From a virus (taxonomy: Duplodnaviria; Heunggongvirae; Uroviricota; Caudoviricetes), in IMG/VR virus record IMGVR_UViG_2713896832_000003: 20,937 nt of DNA, one strand, 5' to 3'. The translations under genes were made by a program, and so were the position numbers. Below are positions 6,684 through 16,742 of this stretch, piece by piece. How positions within the stretch are numbered: position 1 is the stretch's first letter; the number at the start of each line of letters is the position of its first letter. The notes beneath the pieces were generated by a model. The model was not told where the DNA came from and did no database searches. It worked only from the letters and a program-made list of their open reading frames with translations.

Positions 6684-7106
6684 GTGGCAAAAGTTTTTAC
6701 ACAAGAAGAGCGGGAAAAAATTAAAGGGCAGGTTGTTGAACTCGTACGCCGGAGTGGGCGTGAGACGTTACGGCAACTGGAAGTCAAGACAGGTGCGACA
6801 AGATATCTGATGAGCGTTCTCGCAAGAGAGCTGGTTGCCAGCGGCGATGTATACAACTCTGGTTACGGGTTATTCCCGTCTGAACAGGCGCGTAAGGACT
6901 GGCAAAATGCCCGTAAAAAGCTCTCAAGGGCAAAGCTGAAGGAACCATCTGCGGTTGATCCGGACCTTATCTGGTCATTACCTGACGGAGAAATACGTCG
7001 TTACGACAGGCGTCATAATATGATTTGTACTGAGTGTCGTAAAAGCGAAGTTATGCAGCGCATATTGTCGTTTTATCAGGGGGATGTCCGGTATTTATTG
7101 AAGTGA
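6684..7106 (+). CDS. hypothetical phage protein, 140 aa
   Basis: GTG start 6 nt after an AGGAGG RBS (6672-6677), 40 nt downstream of the replication gene; basic, protein-like composition. Confidence 0.6.
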   Translation: MAKVFTQEEREKIKGQVVELVRRSGRETLRQLEVKTGATRYLMSVLARELVASGDVYNSGYGLFPSEQARKDWQNARKKLSRAKLKEPSAVDPDLIWSLPDGEIRRYDRRHNMICTECRKSEVMQRILSFYQGDVRYLLK

Positions 7107-7174
7107 CGAGATTAAAGTGCATTAGTTCAGATGCAAATTGACATTTTGTGGCACAGGGTAGAGCTAGCGTGGTT

Positions 7175-7198
7175 GTCCGCTTTGTGCCAAGAGCGGAC
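7175..7198. repeat. palindromic repeat, copy A (GTCCGCTTTGTGCCAAGAGCGGAC)
   Basis: Imperfect hairpin with GTCCGC(T) / (A)GCGGAC arms, between the convergent 6684 gene and the GIY-YIG gene; two mismatches to copy B. Confidence 0.5.
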
Positions 7199-7235
7199 TT
7201 TGCAAAATGGGGGTTATTTCAATCAAAACGTAACG

Positions 7236-8180
7236 TCACAACCAGCCGACGCTCTCTCGCCATTTATAATTAGTAACTTTATCATTTTCGCTTATTTTTT
7301 TAGATATAGAGCGCGGCTCTCTTCCTAGATACTCAGATATTTCTATCGGGGACAAATCAAAATCAACAAGCATGACTCTAAGTTTTTCCATTTCCTTTAA
7401 AGTCCAAGGCTTGCCATAATTTTCATAAAGAGATACCTTATGCTCCCTGATAGTTCGCTTTCTCTGAGTTTCACTTTCCCTCTGAAAAATCTCGCTTTTA
7501 AATTGTGAACGGAACTCTTTACAGAAGTTGTTATCAGTTTTTTTGTTATATAGATTGCTAAAAATAAGCTGGGATGCCGGGTCTAAATCAGGTGTGTTAA
7601 TAATGAAAACTTTGACCTTTTCCATATAGGGATATTCAATTTTACCCAATATGCTTAATTGCTTTATATTAAAAAAACCTCTCAAATCAAAAGATTTAAT
7701 GAGCTTTGATTGGATTACACTTTCAATCCTGCTTGCATTTAAATAACAGTACTTTGCCATTGGAAGGGCCCATACTACCAGTTGAGGAATATATTTTTCT
7801 AATGCAATGCTCTGCCAATCAGTATCAAAGGTTTGGCTTTTTGCTAGCATGTTTTTCGGCAAATCAGAATACATTGTGGTAGATGCCCATATCTTATAAT
7901 CATTCGCCAAGGCTTGATAGTATTTTGTGTGGTTATGAATTTTATAAGCTGACATGAAGCGATAAACGTCTTCGTCGTGACCAGCGTCGTAAATTGTTCG
8001 ATTTCCTCTAAGATAACCGTCGTAATGTTCGGTTATCCTTCTACCTACATTACAACTTACCCCAACGTAAACCACACGACTGAAAAGTCCTTTATGGACA
8101 ATAAGATAAACTCCGCTACAGCCAGATTTCCTGGCCTCTGATAGAGAACCTAAAAATCTCCATTCCATAATTAAATCCAT
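7236..8180 (-). CDS. GIY-YIG nuclease-domain protein with a C-terminal putative HTH region
   Basis: N-terminal SGVYLIVHKGLFSRVVYVGVSCNVGRRITEH fits the GIY...YIG...R...E pattern of GIY-YIG nucleases. The C-terminal ~60 aa (PWTLKEMEKLRVMLVDFDLSPIEISEYLGREPRSISKKIS) are HTH-like. AT-rich coding sequence. Confidence 0.7.
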   Translation of the reverse strand: MDLIMEWRFLGSLSEARKSGCSGVYLIVHKGLFSRVVYVGVSCNVGRRITEHYDGYLRGNRTIYDAGHDEDVYRFMSAYKIHNHTKYYQALANDYKIWASTTMYSDLPKNMLAKSQTFDTDWQSIALEKYIPQLVVWALPMAKYCYLNASRIESVIQSKLIKSFDLRGFFNIKQLSILGKIEYPYMEKVKVFIINTPDLDPASQLIFSNLYNKKTDNNFCKEFRSQFKSEIFQRESETQRKRTIREHKVSLYENYGKPWTLKEMEKLRVMLVDFDLSPIEISEYLGREPRSISKKISENDKVTNYKWRESVGWL

Positions 8181-8348
8181 AATTATTGCTACTGTTTTTG
8201 TTTATCATTATTTTCGTGAAACTTCAACAATTTTATCCAAAAGCTAAGGGCAAAGACTTATATAATTATACTTGTCATCGTTAGCGATTATATAGAGTAG
8301 TGGCGCTGACCTGCTCCCTGGTGATTCACACAGAATGCTGTTAGTAAT

Positions 8349-8372
8349 GTCCGTTCCTCGCTCTCAGCGGAC
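8349..8372. repeat. palindromic repeat, copy D (GTCCGTTCCTCGCTCTCAGCGGAC)
   Basis: Same arm sequences as copies A, B and C; about 170 nt upstream of the GIY-YIG gene start. Confidence 0.45.
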
Positions 8373-8390
8373 CTTCAGCTCAGTGATATC

Positions 8391-8414
8391 GTCCGCTCTG
8401 TGCAAAGAGCGGAC
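8391..8414. repeat. palindromic repeat, copy B (GTCCGCTCTGTGCAAAGAGCGGAC)
   Basis: 8-bp arms GTCCGCTC/GAGCGGAC around an 8-nt spacer; starts 42 nt after the start of copy D. Confidence 0.5.
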
Positions 8415-8727
8415 GTTGGTATGCAAGAGCCCTCCAAAAGTTGATGGTTGGTTTGCAGGGGGGCTTAAAGAAACTGCACTTATCAAGTTGAAGTTCTGTA
8501 TTCAGCGAAATCGTAGCACTCTGACGATAAGTAACTCCGGTACTCCGCTCTTCGATGAAGAACCAGAGTAATCCCCCCGAAAAACCAGCGCATCAAAATT
8601 GGATCTTCAGCGGTAGCTTATCGGCTATCGGAAGTACAGGTGTGGATTCGTGGTGAATTGCTTTGATAATAAACGATTAATACGGAAAAACGCATTAATC
8701 ATTTATTAGCTTTTAGTAAACCACAAT

Positions 8728-10077
8728 TTATTCCGTTTTACATATCATAGTAGTCGATTGGAGAATATAGTTTCTGGGAATGTACTCTTCAAAGTGTTCG
8801 TCCTTTTTAAATACATGAACTACATTTGGGAATAATTGATAGTCAACAGGGTGTATAGCGTTTGGATTATGGTACATGTACATGGCTGTACACCATGGTT
8901 CTTGATAGTTAGGGTCACTTACATCGGCTGAAAATGGATGTGGGGCTGCATCCTGATCAGTTTTAACACCACTGACGTACACTTTGAATCCACTCGCCTC
9001 TACACCTGCAAGAATTCCCATCCGGTTAAACTTAGGTATGGTTGCTTGAGTAGTGAGTAAAACGGCAGAAACATAATTATTTTGTTCTGAGCCAAAAAAG
9101 TTCGACTTGATACTTCTATTTTCATCTGTATGTCTTTCAATAGAAATGCCTGACTCAATATCAATCCCGTACAAATAGCTATGCAAGGCTTCGCTTGAGA
9201 AGGCCATGGACATTCTTTTTGAATAATCCTGCATTGCTATGACAAATGGTTTGTTCTTTGTATGGTTGAGTTCCCAGTAATGAACTTTCTCTGGCTCAGG
9301 GCAATGCCGGACTTTTTTTAATAAACTTCTTGCAAACTTAAAAGGCATGACATTTAGAACATGTTTTCTTAATTCATCCATCTGTTCATCGTTAATGACT
9401 TTTCTTTCAAGAGGGGCTTCTGCTTCAGCAATGCTTACAGCCTCTACAGCAATTTCCACTCCAAATTTAGATAGCAGAAAATCTGGTTGATTGTATTCTC
9501 TATTCATTTCAAAGTCGAGTTCATAAAATACAGCGTTCAAATATAATTCAAATAACCTTGAATTAAATGCATCACTTTGAAAATCCCTTATAAATATTCC
9601 ATCAGGATCTTTGAACCAGTATGCAAGTTCCTCAAGAACAATATATGCAGGGAAATGAAGAGGGTCTTCGAGGAGCATTTTTATATAAACATTCCTTTTT
9701 TTCGCTGGGACCTTACTCAAGAATAATGAAAAAGGTTTGGTTGATTCATCGCCTTGCATGAATGTACCATTTTGGTGCTGCGCCAGCATCTTTGGTATGT
9801 CATCGTTCAAATTATTAAGCAAGACATCCATTGAATCAAATGAAGCCAAGACGTTTATTGCTCTGAATTTTTTATCTAAATCCCGACCTAAGACTATTGC
9901 GTTAAAATCTTTATCAATATTGCATATGATTATTGTGGATAACAATGTTATCCCATTCCCCTCATATTTAAACCAGCGTATCTCCTCAGAAAATGTCTTA
10001 AGGTAAGGTGAGCGACCGTAAAAATAAATATCAAATTGTTCTTTGCTGATCTCACTGAAGTGTAATCCTGCGTTCAT
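8728..10077 (-). CDS. hypothetical protein, 449 aa, no recognised domain
   Basis: Long AT-rich ORF with an AAAAGGAA RBS before the ATG, upstream of and co-oriented with the GIY-YIG gene. A hairpin-plus-T-rich terminator candidate lies on the minus strand around 8672-8700. Confidence 0.7.
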   Translation of the reverse strand: MNAGLHFSEISKEQFDIYFYGRSPYLKTFSEEIRWFKYEGNGITLLSTIIICNIDKDFNAIVLGRDLDKKFRAINVLASFDSMDVLLNNLNDDIPKMLAQHQNGTFMQGDESTKPFSLFLSKVPAKKRNVYIKMLLEDPLHFPAYIVLEELAYWFKDPDGIFIRDFQSDAFNSRLFELYLNAVFYELDFEMNREYNQPDFLLSKFGVEIAVEAVSIAEAEAPLERKVINDEQMDELRKHVLNVMPFKFARSLLKKVRHCPEPEKVHYWELNHTKNKPFVIAMQDYSKRMSMAFSSEALHSYLYGIDIESGISIERHTDENRSIKSNFFGSEQNNYVSAVLLTTQATIPKFNRMGILAGVEASGFKVYVSGVKTDQDAAPHPFSADVSDPNYQEPWCTAMYMYHNPNAIHPVDYQLFPNVVHVFKKDEHFEEYIPRNYILQSTTMICKTE

Positions 10078-10361
10078 ACCAATTCCTTTTCAATGAATAA
10101 TTGGCCTTTAGGAGTGATTCCCTTTGTCTTTAATTCAGTTCTAACTAGTTCTTTAATCCAATAGCCTAAGCTCATCATGCAGTTGGATCATAAGACAACG
10201 CCCTATAGTGCTCGTGATACTATAGGGCATCTGACCACACTGTTAACTGGAGTAACGACTATGGCAGGAATACAGCATAACCAAACTCACCCCAAACTTA
10301 CATAGCGCTTTCTGGCCGTGAGCATAACAAGGTCCACTCCTCGCTCATAAGGGACAACCAT

Positions 10362-10394
10362 ACTCAAATCTCCCACATTGCAGGAGATTTGAGT
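10362..10394 (+). promoter_or_regulatory. 12-bp perfect inverted repeat whose right arm covers the RBS of the recombinase gene
   Basis: ACTCAAATCTCC (10362-10373), 9-nt loop, GGAGATTTGAGT (10383-10394), ending 1 nt before ATG 10395. Would sequester the Shine-Dalgarno sequence in the mRNA. Confidence 0.4.
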
Positions 10395-10997
10395 ATGAAC
10401 ACGTCACCGTGGAACAAAGACCGTATCATAGGCCAAAAAAGACCACTTCAGATATCTCATATCTGGGGTATCCGAATCCGACTTGAACTGGAAGGTAAAA
10501 CTCGCGATTTAGCTCTGTTCAACATGGCCCTGGATAGTAAGCTTCGAGGCTGTGATCTGGTCAAACTCAAAGTATCTGATGTTGCATATGGTGGCTCTGT
10601 TTCAAGCAGAGCAACGGTGTTGCAACAGAAAACCGGTAGCCCTGTTCAATTTGAGATAACCAAAGGGACAAGAGAAGCTGTTGCTGCATTGATACAGCTT
10701 AGCAATTTGCACAGTAAAGACTTCTTGTTTCGGTCTAGGGTCGGAACTAACCAGCACATTTCAACCCGGCAATACAACCGAATCTTTCATGGGGGGGTAG
10801 AAAAGCTTGGTCTCGAAGATTCGCTTTACAGCACACATTCCATGAGAAGAACAAAACCTTACCTGATCTACAAGAAAACCAAGAATCTCCGGGTGATCCA
10901 ACTTCTGTTGGGTCATAAGAAACTGGAAAGCACAGTCCGTTATCTGGGCATTGAAGTCGATGATGCGTTAGAGATTTCTGAATCGATTGAAGTCTAA
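10395..10997 (+). CDS. FimB/FimE-like short tyrosine recombinase (catalytic domain only, ~200 aa)
   Basis: Contains the tyrosine-recombinase catalytic residues in order (LRGCDL; QQKTGSPVQ; HSMRRT; LLLGHKKLESTVRYL) but no N-terminal core-binding domain, the FimB/FimE architecture. The ORF track starts at TTG 10389; ATG 10395 with an AGGAG RBS is more likely. Confidence 0.8.
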   Translation: MNTSPWNKDRIIGQKRPLQISHIWGIRIRLELEGKTRDLALFNMALDSKLRGCDLVKLKVSDVAYGGSVSSRATVLQQKTGSPVQFEITKGTREAVAALIQLSNLHSKDFLFRSRVGTNQHISTRQYNRIFHGGVEKLGLEDSLYSTHSMRRTKPYLIYKKTKNLRVIQLLLGHKKLESTVRYLGIEVDDALEISESIEV

Positions 10998-11003
10998 GGT
11001 TGT

Positions 11004-11025
11004 CAGGGCTGCAACAGCAGCCCTG
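11004..11025. terminator. hairpin just after the recombinase stop (CAGGGCTGC-AACA-GCAGCCCTG)
   Basis: 9-bp perfect stem 7 nt after the TAA; no clear U-tract, so terminator function is uncertain. Confidence 0.35.
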
Positions 11026-11356
11026 TGCCATAAGCGGAAGTATTTAACAACTATCAGTGTTGTTCAACAGATAAAGGGGCACTTGATTTTTTCTGTTCTC
11101 AGGAAATGATAAAAGCGCGTCGGTTCAAGCCTGCTTAACGGGAGTTTGTTAATCCTGTTGCCGTGACGTTTTGACACCATTATGATGGGGAGACACTTAA
11201 TGTATGAAGGTTCCGCCACTTATACCTGTCCAACAACTGCCTCGGATGTTTCTTTGTATGAATAAGTGGTAATGAGTAGTGAATCGCTAACAGTCACCCG
11301 AACAATCGGTGCCTGCAATTAATTCTATATTCTAAACGAGGGGGAGATTATTACAC

Positions 11357-12337
11357 ATGAAATTTAAGGACAAGAACCTTAAGGCTCTCGCGGAATGTAT
11401 CATAGGAGATAATAAGGCATTTCTGTATCGTTCAAGCAGTCACATCACTGAATTTTTCCAGGACTGCGGCATGGATGTTACTCATGACGGATCCACTCGG
11501 TGGAAATGGACGGCCCAGAGGCTTGAAGAACTTCTTTATGAGCCACAGTCAAAGCCACATACTTTGCCGGAAAGGTTTGTTCATGTGCTCAGAACTTTAA
11601 TGTTAAAAGAAGATGCAATGGATGACGATCCAGGAAGATTAAAGGCGCTTGAAGAACTGAACAAGCCTTTGATGCGGGAAGGCTATGAGGCATTCTATGG
11701 TGACGATCGCCTTTTGTATATACGCCATACCGATACCAAAACGGTTTCAGTCAGTAATAACCCTCATCGGCCCTTAACGCCTCACGAAGTAGAATGCAGA
11801 AGGTTACTGACCGCGTTTCTTGATACCTGCTCAGAAGATGAGTTAATAGAAGATATTCTCCTTCCTTTATTCCGGCAACTTGGTTTTCACCGGATAACAG
11901 CAGTGGGACATAAAGATAAAGCGCTGGAATACGGGAAAGACATCTGGATGAAGTTCACACTGCCAACTCAGCATGTTCTTTATTTCGGCATTCAGGCAAA
12001 AAAAGGTAAGTTGGATGCGTCCGGTGCCAGCAAATCTACGAATTCAAACGTGGCAGAAATCTTCAACCAGGTACTGATGATGCTTGGCCATGAAATATTT
12101 GACCCAGAAACAAATAGAAAGGTGCTGGTAGATCATGCCTTTATCGTTGCTGGCGGAGAAATTACTAAACAGGCGAGGAACTGGCTGGGCGGGAAACTTG
12201 ATGCCAGCAAAAGAAGCCAGATAATATTTATGGACCGGGAAGACATTCTTAATTTATATACTGTAAGTAATGTACCTCTGCCAACAGGTGCTCTCATCTC
12301 TGATGATGCCGTTAAGAACGATGATATTCCTTTCTAA
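11357..12337 (+). CDS. hypothetical protein with an Mrr-like (PD-(D/E)xK, D...QxK) nuclease motif in the C-terminal half
   Basis: Strong RBS GAGGGGGAG before the ATG. Motif ...EYGKDIWMKF...HVLYFGIQAKKGKL resembles the Asp...Gln-x-Lys catalytic signature of Mrr-type restriction endonuclease domains; the N-terminal ~160 aa are unassigned. Confidence 0.65.
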   Translation: MKFKDKNLKALAECIIGDNKAFLYRSSSHITEFFQDCGMDVTHDGSTRWKWTAQRLEELLYEPQSKPHTLPERFVHVLRTLMLKEDAMDDDPGRLKALEELNKPLMREGYEAFYGDDRLLYIRHTDTKTVSVSNNPHRPLTPHEVECRRLLTAFLDTCSEDELIEDILLPLFRQLGFHRITAVGHKDKALEYGKDIWMKFTLPTQHVLYFGIQAKKGKLDASGASKSTNSNVAEIFNQVLMMLGHEIFDPETNRKVLVDHAFIVAGGEITKQARNWLGGKLDASKRSQIIFMDREDILNLYTVSNVPLPTGALISDDAVKNDDIPF

Positions 12338-12561
12338 TCAGAAGTACGTCTTTTTCTGAAAGAATACGTGATAGGTAGCCACACCACACCTTTAGTGACC
12401 CCTTAATCTGGTAATATAACAGCCCGTATGAATGTCCGCGGCATCGCGGGCTGAAATTTATTAAAAATACTTATTCATCAAGCTGGAGTAGTTTGCCGAG
12501 TAACTGTAAACGCCCAACTTAACCGGACCATTCACTTTTAGATTGCTACCAGCAAACCAAC

Positions 12562-12585
12562 TTCCGTTTCTCGCTCAAAGCGGAC
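12562..12585. repeat. palindromic repeat, copy C (TTCCGTTTCTCGCTCAAAGCGGAC)
   Basis: Closest to copy D; lies ~225 nt after the Mrr-like gene at the right edge of the AT-rich island. Confidence 0.45.
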
Positions 12586-12764
12586 TAGAAGGTTAGCTTG
12601 CGTCGGACTTGGCGTATTTAAAGAAGTGCTGGTGGTAACTGGTTGTTGTGTTCCATTTCTACAAAACAAAATCACAGAAACTATACCCAATAGTTATATT
12701 GAATCAATGATGAGACAGCCTCATATTTATCAGAACTGGTGTACGTCCAATACAGGAGGTTGTC

Positions 12765-12854
12765 GTGCTGGTTCTCAAATATGCGCTAGCTATTGCGGCT
12801 GTAATGGCAATTTATTGTCTTGCTATTGTTCTTACGGATCGCCTTTCTGATTGA
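12765..12854 (+). CDS. candidate small hydrophobic peptide, 29 aa (MLVLKYALAIAAVMAIYCLAIVLTDRLSD)
   Basis: GTG start 5 nt after a perfect AGGAGG (12754-12759); single predicted transmembrane-like helix. Not in the ORF track because of size; overlaps the listed 12626..12850 Cys-rich ORF in another frame. Confidence 0.3.
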   Translation: MLVLKYALAIAAVMAIYCLAIVLTDRLSD

Positions 12855-13065
12855 TTTTATATTGGCGAGGTGACGGGAGTTAAGTAGAATTGCTGCGGGT
12901 GCTTGAGGCTATCTGCCTCAGGCATGAACACCAAAGGCAGATAGAGAAAAGCCCCAGTTAACATTACGCGTCCTGCAAGACGTTTAACATTAATCTGAGG
13001 CTCAATCTATGAACGGCAAATCTAGGTTAGCCTCTTACGTGCCGAAAGGCAAGGAGAAGCAGGCT

Positions 13066-13221
13066 ATGAAGCAGCAAAAGGCGATGTTAATCGCCCTGAT
13101 CGTCATCTGTTTAACCGTCATAATGACGGCACTGGTAACGAGGAAAGACCTCTGCGAGGTACGAATCCGAACCGGCCAGACGGAGGTCGCTGTCTTCACA
13201 GCTTACGAACCTGAGGAGTAA
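13066..13221 (+). CDS. hokD: Hok/Gef family membrane toxin HokD (RelF)
   Basis: 51-aa product MKQQKAMLIALIVICLTVIMTALVTRKDLCEVRIRTGQTEVAVFTAYEPEE matches recalled HokD; AAGGAG RBS at 13051-13056. The listed ORF 13009..13221 is an in-frame 19-codon upstream extension. Confidence 0.85.
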   Translation: MKQQKAMLIALIVICLTVIMTALVTRKDLCEVRIRTGQTEVAVFTAYEPEE

Positions 13222-16432: not shown

Positions 16433-16508
16433 GGCCCTTTAGCTCAGTGGTGAGAGCGAGCGACTCATAATCGACAGGTCGCTGGGTCAAATCCAGCAAG
16501 GGCCACCA
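16433..16508 (+). tRNA. tRNA, anticodon CAU, Ile2 (ileX-like)
   Basis: 76 nt; 7-bp acceptor stem GGCCCTT/AAGGGCC, 4-bp D stem, anticodon loop CTCATAA, discriminator A and encoded CCA. Resembles E. coli tRNA-Ile2 as recalled, but has two mismatches in the anticodon stem and G at T-loop position 54. Confidence 0.7.
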
Positions 16509-16509
16509 A

Positions 16510-16586
16510 CCGTCACCAGTTCATCAGGAAAGAGCGTCAACCCTTTAAGTTGAGTGTGCGAGGTTCGAGTCCCCGGTGGCGGTCCA
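16510..16586 (+). tRNA. atypical tRNA-like gene, anticodon loop CCTTTAA (anticodon UUU if functional); possibly a pseudo-tRNA
   Basis: Folds as a cloverleaf with encoded CCA, but has C1-G72, C at position 8, C at position 33 and one T-stem mismatch. Confidence 0.4.
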
Positions 16587-16588
16587 GT

Positions 16589-16664
<76 letters not shown>

Positions 16665-16667
16665 TAT

Positions 16668-16742
<75 letters not shown>

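Follow-up and report, generated by a model that had tools for sequence, protein, structure and literature searches.

Stand-alone nucleases of the PD-(D/E)xK type are common, and the restriction enzyme Mrr shares its layout with the protein considered here, which is encoded at positions 11357-12337 of a 20,937-nucleotide stretch of viral DNA (Duplodnaviria; Heunggongvirae; Uroviricota; Caudoviricetes; IMG/VR record IMGVR_UViG_2713896832_000003). This whole stretch is called the window below. Both proteins join a non-catalytic N-terminal module to a C-terminal PD-(D/E)xK module, both stand alone with no methyltransferase, and both place a D...Q-A-K signature on consecutive strands (D203...Q219-A-K221 in Mrr and D195...Q213-A-K215 in the window protein). 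The N-terminal domain of the window protein is not Mrr_N, however, its family adds the invariant residues E191, H206, D249, D259, and H260, and Mrr lacks a C-terminal tail resembling the tip of SSB, the host protein that binds single-stranded DNA. MspJI/AspBHI, FokI, and the nuclease domain of the Type ISP enzyme LlaBIII are just 9-13% identical to the window protein, which has none of their N-terminal readers or motor domains, and none of these enzymes carries an SSB tip. The single-protein defense effectors of the PD-(D/E)xK type, SduA of Shedu, HamA of Hachiman, Cap4, and the nuclease domain of Avs4, show no sequence-level relationship to it (no match in PADLOC); their N-terminal domains are different, and an SSB tip is not reported for them.

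The SSB tip itself is well described. DDDIPF is the conserved C-terminal hexapeptide of Escherichia coli SSB (PMC5872125), and FDDDIPF, the last seven residues, is referred to as 'C7' (PMC13490951). SSB is reported to recruit at least 17 genome-maintenance proteins through this C-terminal peptide. There is precedent for mobile elements that copy the tip to gain access to SbcB and other host factors, and for SSB as a hub in phage sensing; Bas52_0087, the trigger of DRT10, is a mobile-element protein that ends in FDDDIPF and is proposed to engage SbcB/ExoI. The tail of the window family has the sequence of the SSB C-terminal tip (SSB-Ct), its position at the extreme C-terminus, its disordered and variable linker, and its clade variants (FDDDIPF, LDDEIPF, and DEPPF). 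The carriers differ: Bas52_0087 and its like are SSB-like OB-fold proteins of invaders, whereas the carrier here is a predicted nuclease without OB fold or SSB homology, located in defense-type islands and not in phage genomes, whose binding to SSB partners is proposed.

Given a constrained gene, a restriction-type fold, an intact catalytic motif, a host-matched tip, no partner gene, and a location in defense-type islands, we tentatively infer a single-gene defense or exclusion nuclease, which would be coupled to the SSB interaction network by docking of its tip on host partners. We would place this reading somewhat short of even.

The gene and its SSB-like tail

The coding sequence (CDS) opens with ATG, has homologs and a RefSeq counterpart, and shows a low ratio of nonsynonymous to synonymous substitution rates (dN/dS). 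Two of its parts bear on the tail. The linker is recognized by low conservation, by a low predicted local distance difference test (pLDDT) score in AlphaFold2 (AF2), and by the highest dN of the gene; the tip is recognized by tail statistics, by co-variation with the host, and by comparison with chance expectation.

11357..12337, + strand: nuclease CDS, 326 aa, stop codon included in the coordinates
12272..12316, + strand: disordered, Pro-rich, variable linker, residues 306-320
12317..12334, + strand: candidate SSB C-terminal-tip mimic, residues 321-326, NDDIPF-COOH

No rival open reading frame (ORF) of comparable size was listed at 11357..12337 on either strand. A purine-rich Shine-Dalgarno sequence, GAGGGGGAG, lies at 11338-11346, about 10 nt upstream of the ATG, and a gap of 359 bp separates the gene from the integrase ORF upstream. 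A first-pass annotation of the window, drawn from the letters and a list of ORFs, had placed the ORF correctly together with the peptides EYGKDIWMKF (residues 191-200) and FGIQAKKGKL (residues 210-219), and it had described a strong ribosome-binding site and an isolated position; both agree with the features above. Of 5426 complete E. coli genomes, 191 have the same CDS in RefSeq, annotated as 'hypothetical protein', and in 188 of these the identity is at least 99%.

A word-indexed search returned 3877 homologs at E<=1e-3, near-constant in length. The best 120 of these are nearly all 325-329 aa long and at least 70% identical, and their hosts are enterobacteria, Vibrio, Halomonadaceae, Verrucomicrobia, cyanobacteria, and Omnitrophica. 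When one genome per species was scanned, 503 species proved to have a relative, of which the best 80 are at least 62% identical and span the alpha-, beta-, gamma-, and delta-proteobacteria, Cyanobacteria, Acidobacteria, Planctomycetes, Verrucomicrobia, Bacteroidales, Synergistota, and Hydrogenedentota. Pairwise dN/dS between the window and enterobacterial copies is 0.08-0.15 for the whole gene, 0.07-0.17 for the N-terminal domain, and 0.06-0.12 for the nuclease domain. In distant pairs dS is saturated, yet the proteins are still about 70% identical, and thus the conservation reflects strong, long-term purifying selection on both domains of a real gene and not merely recent transfer.

At the extreme C-terminus acidic residues are followed by hydrophobic-Pro-Phe, as in SSB-Ct, behind a flexible and poorly conserved linker (pLDDT below 50 at residues 315-326). 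The protein is otherwise not an SSB: it has no SSB or OB match in Pfam, and its AF2 model contains no OB fold. Among the 120 close homologs the C-terminus is [IVL]PF in 113, with near-variants in 4 more, and exactly DDDIPF in 44, many of which read FDDDIPF, the family consensus. A PF-type tail is kept in 72 of 80 labeled genomic copies, and full-length relatives at 40-50% identity retain it as DEIPF, EDIPF, EDVPF, DDIPF, GDIPF, or DDDVPF. Judged by amino-acid frequencies, about 5e-6 of proteins should end in [DE][DE][IVL]PF. Across all loci examined a tail of this type was found at 87 of 3371 ORF ends, every one a nuclease copy except a single adjacent mobile-element SSB. For comparison, in the core genome of Streptococcus mutans an LPF C-terminus occurs in only three proteins, two of which are SSBs (PMC5143411).

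The tail also varies with the host. Position -7 is Phe in 15 of 26 beta- and gamma-proteobacterial copies versus 1 of 28 alpha-proteobacterial copies (Fisher p=1e-5), it is Leu in none of the 26 versus 13 of the 28 (p=4e-5), and position -4 is Glu in 6 versus 17 (p=0.007), all three counts ignoring phylogeny. The exact FDDDIPF was found in 10 copies, only in beta/gamma-proteobacteria, and the exact LDDEIPF in 2, only in alpha-proteobacteria; LDDEIPF is the SSB-C7 of Rhodobacter and many other alpha-proteobacteria (5795 of 18,841 assemblies). A third variant comes from actinobacterial plasmids, whose copies are about 62% identical overall; their tails are NDEPPF in Rhodococcus rhodochrous, TDEPPF in Mycobacterium lentiflavum, DGPPF in R. 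opacus, and NNELPF in Corynebacterium. The mycobacterial SSBs in PDB SEQRES end in DDEPPF (M. tuberculosis and M. smegmatis) or DEEPPF (M. leprae). Three clade-specific variants thus agree with the host tip. Because each clade's tail shifts toward its own SSB tip on a body that stays more than 60% identical, the tail is taken to be a functional SSB-tip mimic whose partner would be a host-adapted SSB-tip-binding surface, for which this co-variation is good evidence, not proof.

The tail might instead be incidental to targeting, contributing solubility, stability, or a protease tag to what is otherwise an ordinary type IV or conventional stand-alone restriction endonuclease with an N-terminal domain that reads DNA modification or structure. 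We regard this as unlikely. An LPF C-terminus does act as a ClpXP tag in some S. mutans strains (PMC5143411), but E. coli ClpXP left GFP-DDDLPF undegraded in published work, and we judge a ClpXP degron improbable in E. coli on account of that stability. Nor would an incidental tail be expected to survive in some 94% of copies from different phyla beside a linker that drifts, or to vary in step with the host SSB tip.

Several individual tails deserve mention. The Yersinia enterocolitica homolog P0004 ends in NDDISF, and a few other copies end in ISF, ITF, or YPF. The exchange of the penultimate Pro for Ser in P0004 is presumably the same change as in the classic ssb-113 allele, which we take to weaken the binding of SSB to its partners. 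In Phyllobacterium leguminum (locus L067) a short mobile-element-type SSB ending in DDSDIPF (9299-9889, + strand) lies at a distance of about 2.3 kb from the nuclease, and FDDSDIPF is the end of an inverted remnant ORF (8865-9029, - strand). Apart from the nuclease copies, these two were the sole SSB-tip-like C-termini in the set of 3371 ORF ends.

The predicted nuclease and its N-terminal domain

Ahead of the tail the protein divides into two domains and a short linker. The N-terminal domain has a pLDDT of about 85-94 in both AF2 models, the interdomain linker is defined by the alignment of close homologs and low pLDDT, the nuclease domain is defined by its AF2 fold and invariant residues, and the putative active-site residues are invariant in an alignment of relatives at 25-90% identity.

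11357..11758, + strand: N-terminal domain, residues 1-134, five helices and a beta-hairpin
11759..11779, + strand: interdomain linker, residues 135-141, NPHRP motif
11780..12271, + strand: predicted PD-(D/E)xK nuclease domain, residues 142-305
11834-11839, + strand: putative active-site E160/D161
11939-11941, + strand: putative active-site D195
11993-11995, + strand: putative active-site Q213
11999-12001, + strand: putative active-site K215

A first AF2 model built on relatives of at least 70% identity left the nuclease half unusable (pLDDT 33-55), and a second, to which relatives of 25-50% identity were added, made it usable. The predicted core runs alpha-beta-beta-beta-alpha-beta, the restriction-endonuclease-like arrangement of the PD-(D/E)xK superfamily, with the acidic D195 starting strand 2 (residues 195-201) and Q213 and K215 forming the (D/E/Q)xK element of strand 3 (residues 207-215). 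Residues invariant across 25-90% identity are E160, D161, P170, E191, G193, D195, P203, H206, Q213, K215, D249, D259, H260, and A273. The first-pass annotation had read the two peptides as an Mrr-like D...QxK signature of a PD-(D/E)xK nuclease, and at the level of fold and motif that reading stands, as does the expectation that the proposed catalytic residues would be conserved among homologs. The catalytic domain is accordingly described here as a predicted restriction-type PD-(D/E)xK nuclease with an intact D195...Q213-x-K215, which would be expected to cleave DNA.

The assignment to Mrr by sequence did not follow. The window protein has no match to the Pfam family Mrr_cat (PF04471) at E<=10; in the 25-90%-identity alignment 6 of 33 relatives match it below the gathering threshold of 21 bits, the best at 19.0 bits, and P0140 (18.4 bits) is collinear with the profile over positions 4-112 of 115. 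A hhalign comparison of the family alignment with a profile of E. coli-clade Mrr gave a probability of 0.35%, although that profile is shallow (71-100% identity) and the sensitivity of the comparison accordingly limited. The window nuclease has no match in Pfam or NCBIfam at E<=10, in PHROGs, among the defense models of PADLOC-DB v2 at E<=10, or among all PDB sequences when these were searched by profile. An intermediate-sequence search from a distant C-terminal domain returned 3 uninformative matches. With sub-threshold Pfam scores, a negative hhalign result, and no PDB profile matches, a sequence-level link to Mrr was not obtained. HMMER, run exhaustively over 1.84 billion representatives, identified 971 relatives. 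Some are full-length proteins at 39-51% identity, and others have just the C-terminal domain (query residues of about 145-308) in common, behind unrelated N-termini.

The closest structural neighbors of the nuclease model are AspBHI, MspJI, FokI, and LlaBIII, which are modification-dependent or type IIS/ISP enzymes. These neighbors, together with a D...QxK signature as in Mrr and the lack of a methyltransferase partner, are what speaks for an ordinary restriction enzyme. A solitary nuclease with no cognate methyltransferase is indeed what the 80 loci show, and this is typical of type IV systems. Searches with Pfam, NCBIfam, and PHROGs and the profile search of the PDB gave no recognizable modification reader, such as the winged helix of Mrr_N or an SRA domain, and the N-terminal domain does not resemble Mrr_N, SRA, or any other known reader, which argues against that assignment.

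The first-pass annotation had proposed an N-terminal sensing domain of about 160 residues. A separate N-terminal domain does exist, but it comprises about 134 residues, and in the AF2 model residues 142-174 form the first helices of the nuclease domain. Between the two lies the NPHRP linker, in which P136, H137, R138, and P139 are invariant in close homologs and xxxR[PA] is kept in distant ones. The N-terminal domain has no relatives in Pfam, NCBIfam, PADLOC, PHROGs, or the PDB profile search, and fold searches with the whole model, in which the nuclease domain dominates, gave no match attributable to it; a viral library gave nothing either. It is as constrained as the catalytic domain and has many invariant Arg and aromatic residues. 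We consider it a candidate sensor or targeting domain, and the helix-helix-helix-hairpin order of residues 48-124 in the model is compatible with a winged-helix-like unit.

In some distant relatives (P0235, P0240, P0257, P0258, and P0268) the nuclease domain stands behind other N-termini, and all of these lack the SSB-tip tail; that of P0268 is AlbA_2/Schlafen, and another type is an unassigned stretch of about 150 aa. Within this set, to which P0181 also belongs, one relative adds a C-terminal Trans_reg_C domain to the nuclease domain and likewise has no tail. On the sequences compared, the N-terminal domain and the tail appear to be linked characters.

Such a link invites the idea that the N-terminal domain is itself an SSB-tip receptor, filled by the protein's own tail in cis or in a head-to-tail oligomer and so autoinhibitory. 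Arrays of SSB tails on SSB-coated single-stranded DNA (ssDNA) would then drive the tail out of the receptor, and the nuclease would be recruited to intermediates rich in ssDNA or activated there. Co-occurrence of domain and tail, relatives with the nuclease domain only and no tail, and an N-terminal domain constrained like the catalytic one with its invariant Arg and aromatic residues are all consistent with this. The co-occurrence is based on a handful of distant sequences, however, AF2 leaves the tail undocked on the N-terminal domain, and that domain is unlike any known SSB-tip-binding fold. We hold this arrangement to be quite unlikely.

Neighborhoods and the mobile unit

Across the 80 labeled loci no neighbor family is common to more than 5. 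A multi-gene system with recurring neighbors of 300-450 aa was rejected, since these neighbors are non-homologous between loci and the best neighbor cluster reaches 5 of 80; those in the window, Ruficoccus, and Vibrio are mutually unrelated. The gene is a true singleton, and it resides in variable islands of defense and toxin-antitoxin genes and on plasmids. Its neighbors in seven settings are the following.

Ruficoccus: RHS toxin, AAA_13, DUF2130
Vibrio: HipA, AAA_21, NA37
A cyanobacterium: PLD+SNF2, DUF1156 (DISARM-like)
Klebsiella: KAP NTPase, MazE/PIN, AAA_15/23 ATPase
A Synergistota (Aminobacteriaceae) metagenome-assembled genome: ParE, NTP_transf_2, Rce1-like gene
A Mycobacterium plasmid: AAA ATPase, helicase, HNH
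IncF plasmids: vapBC, ccdAB, and prlF-yhaV, or an ArdA/methylase leading region beside an IS110

The nuclease is encoded on 47 plasmids, of which 25 are conjugative, and a tblastn search of 50,697 phage records gave no match. A phage moron was rejected for this reason and for the lack of a PHROG. Plasmid carriage, frequently beside toxin-antitoxin and replication or partition genes, could point away from defense altogether, to mobile-element maintenance, competition, or recombination, for example an intermediate-processing nuclease or an addiction-type toxin. The absence from phage genomes and the very high conservation, commoner in housekeeping-like interactions than in arms-race genes, are in keeping with such a role. 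Most copies are chromosomal, however, in variable islands with defense genes, and there is neither a fixed position relative to plasmid backbone functions nor a conserved partner. We consider a role of this kind very unlikely.

One arrangement is shared between a chromosome and a plasmid. The order vapB-vapC, nuclease, and a convergent 523-aa AAA_15/AAA_23 ATPase was found on a Klebsiella pneumoniae chromosome (L096, 6202-9747) and on a conjugative IncF plasmid of E. coli (L009, 6218-9764), which suggests that the nuclease also moves within a larger island.

A smaller unit can be delimited in the window by comparison with copies from Pantoea, Leclercia, and plasmids. The shared DNA block, identified by blastn, extends from about 11005/11024 to 12504 and holds the gene with about 330 bp of 5' and about 170 bp of 3' sequence.

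11005..11356, + strand: 5' flank traveling with the gene, promoter/leader region
12338..12504, + strand: 3' flank traveling with the gene, terminator-like, placed by the block boundary and RNA folding

The proximal 130 bp or so of the 5' flank (about 11227-11356) is conserved in all 6 enterobacterial copies compared, and the region holds a single sigma-70-like site (11158-11186), which is no more than a match to the consensus. In the 3' flank a GC-rich hairpin at 12420-12453 (dG -18.7 kcal/mol, z -2.5) is followed by an A/T-rich stretch. No structured RNA that would define a cassette was found, the Rfam matches being sok and tRNAs elsewhere in the window, and no defining flanking repeats, only short pairs at chance level.

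The window nuclease belongs to a lambdoid prophage that is defective and occupies the rspB-ydfJ (Qin) site, and the gene is flanked by a DUF977 replication-region gene on one side and by hokD/sok, rem, DUF968, rusA, and the Q antiterminator on the other. The DUF977-hokD interval of Qin-type prophages (7000-13000 in the window) is a cargo hotspot, which in other E. coli strains holds abortive-infection genes of the AbiH family or relBE-flxA-ydfV, and the GC content of its cargo is 34-44% versus 50-55% in the flanks. Upstream of the nuclease, a tyrosine recombinase of 202 aa (10389-10997, + strand; Pfam Phage_integrase, E=2e-17) is barely more than a catalytic domain. It was rejected as a partner and placed outside the nuclease unit: elsewhere in E. 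coli it accompanies the 449-aa gene described next and no nuclease (H97, H99), and is accordingly assigned to that gene, and the transferable block begins just past its stop codon. The same hotspot contains ORFs of 449 aa (8728-10077, - strand) and 314 aa (7236-8180, - strand) with 34-41% GC and no Pfam domain. RefSeq elsewhere names the former 'ETEC_3214 family protein', and its match in PHROGs is phrog_8571 (E=5e-120), whose function is unassigned. The two may be further uncharacterized cargo, possibly defense genes.

Directly 3' of the nuclease unit is a complete hok/sok module in which the sok antitoxin RNA (Rfam RF01794, 111.7 bits) overlaps the ORF of the hokD toxin (12897-13071 and 13009-13221, both + strand). 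Between unit and sok there is an unannotated 74-aa ORF with a GTG start (12626-12850, + strand) and a Cys-rich C-terminal half (...CRAGSQICASYCGCNGNLLSCYCSYGSPF), which may be spurious. Three tRNA genes (16433-16739, + strand) lie 3' of the Q antiterminator and are given as Ile, Thr, and Gly for an identical prophage in RefSeq; beyond them, degraded holin, tail, and Lom pseudogenes mark the prophage as defective.

A possible role at the SSB hub

The mechanism that we favor assigns one task to each of three modules: an orphan N-terminal domain (residues 1-134), a PD-(D/E)xK catalytic domain, and a flexible linker with a copy of the host SSB tip. The tip would dock into the SSB-tail pockets of genome-maintenance proteins, for example ExoI, RecQ, PriA, RecG, RecO, or the chi subunit, and docking would place the presumed nuclease at replication or recombination intermediates of incoming DNA. 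Alternatively, docking could draw host exonucleases and helicases to DNA that the nuclease has cut. The N-terminal domain would supply recognition of a target or signal and keep the enzyme harmless to its host.

A nuclease that is a singleton with no immunity partner needs an internal off-state, and this opens a second way of using the tail. The SSB-tip copy could be a bait, such that SSB-tail binders of an invader (phage single-strand annealing proteins like Red-beta and RecT, or replication and recombination factors of phages and plasmids) release or assemble the nuclease, with abortive infection or degradation of the invader's DNA as the outcome. The protein would then be a bacterial immune sensor of the integrated-decoy kind that relies on mimicking a hub peptide essential to the host. 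Lambda Red-beta is reported to bind SSB-C7 directly, and the portability of annealases depends on a matching SSB-C7; invader proteins would be constrained to recognize the displayed motif, which would explain why the tail tracks the host tip. The SSB/ssDNA axis provides the trigger for several defense systems, and FDDDIPF is present on an SSB-like trigger from a phage. Nothing indicates, however, that binding of the tail gates catalysis, and host SSB partners would occupy the bait constitutively, leaving discrimination between self and invader unexplained. A bait and the sensor built on it are both, in our judgment, rather unlikely.

Returning to a nuclease docked on host SSB partners, a number of observations weigh against it. 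The defense role is suggested by neighborhood alone, no PADLOC defense model matches, and conservation of at least 60-70% across phyla is atypical of fast-evolving defense genes. The window's own tip, NDDIPF, is a weaker match, identical to E. coli SSB-C7 at 5 of 7 positions, and AF2 places the tail nowhere (pLDDT about 35) and indicates no partner. The actinobacterial sample consists of four plasmids, one of which (Corynebacterium) ends in NELPF, and the co-variation counts are uncorrected for phylogeny. Within the nuclease domain, the loop at residues 183-193 just before D195, with the invariant E191 and G193, is poorly modeled by AF2.

The first-pass interpretation, sound as to fold and motif, had not noticed the SSB-tip tail, and the finding goes beyond it because of the host-matched SSB-tip mimic, the conservation across phyla, and the absence from curated libraries: the nuclease family is missing from Pfam, NCBIfam, PADLOC, and PHROGs. 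In the literature, with subscription-only papers not covered, no nuclease or defense-island protein with an SSB tip was found, and the family accessions are unmentioned. Relative to known stand-alone PD-(D/E)xK nucleases, what is new is the N-terminal domain and the mode of coupling. With relatives in 503 species of many phyla and on plasmids, ultra-conserved and 326 aa long, the protein is experimentally tractable. If the tail is functional, it would represent a new way to tie an effector nuclease to the cell's hub of replication and repair, or to bait those invader proteins that rely on this hub, and a non-SSB protein would join the SSB interactome of about 17 members. Recombineering and antibiotic programs that target SSB-Ct may also be affected, because cells that carry the gene are predicted to express a competing SSB-Ct ligand.

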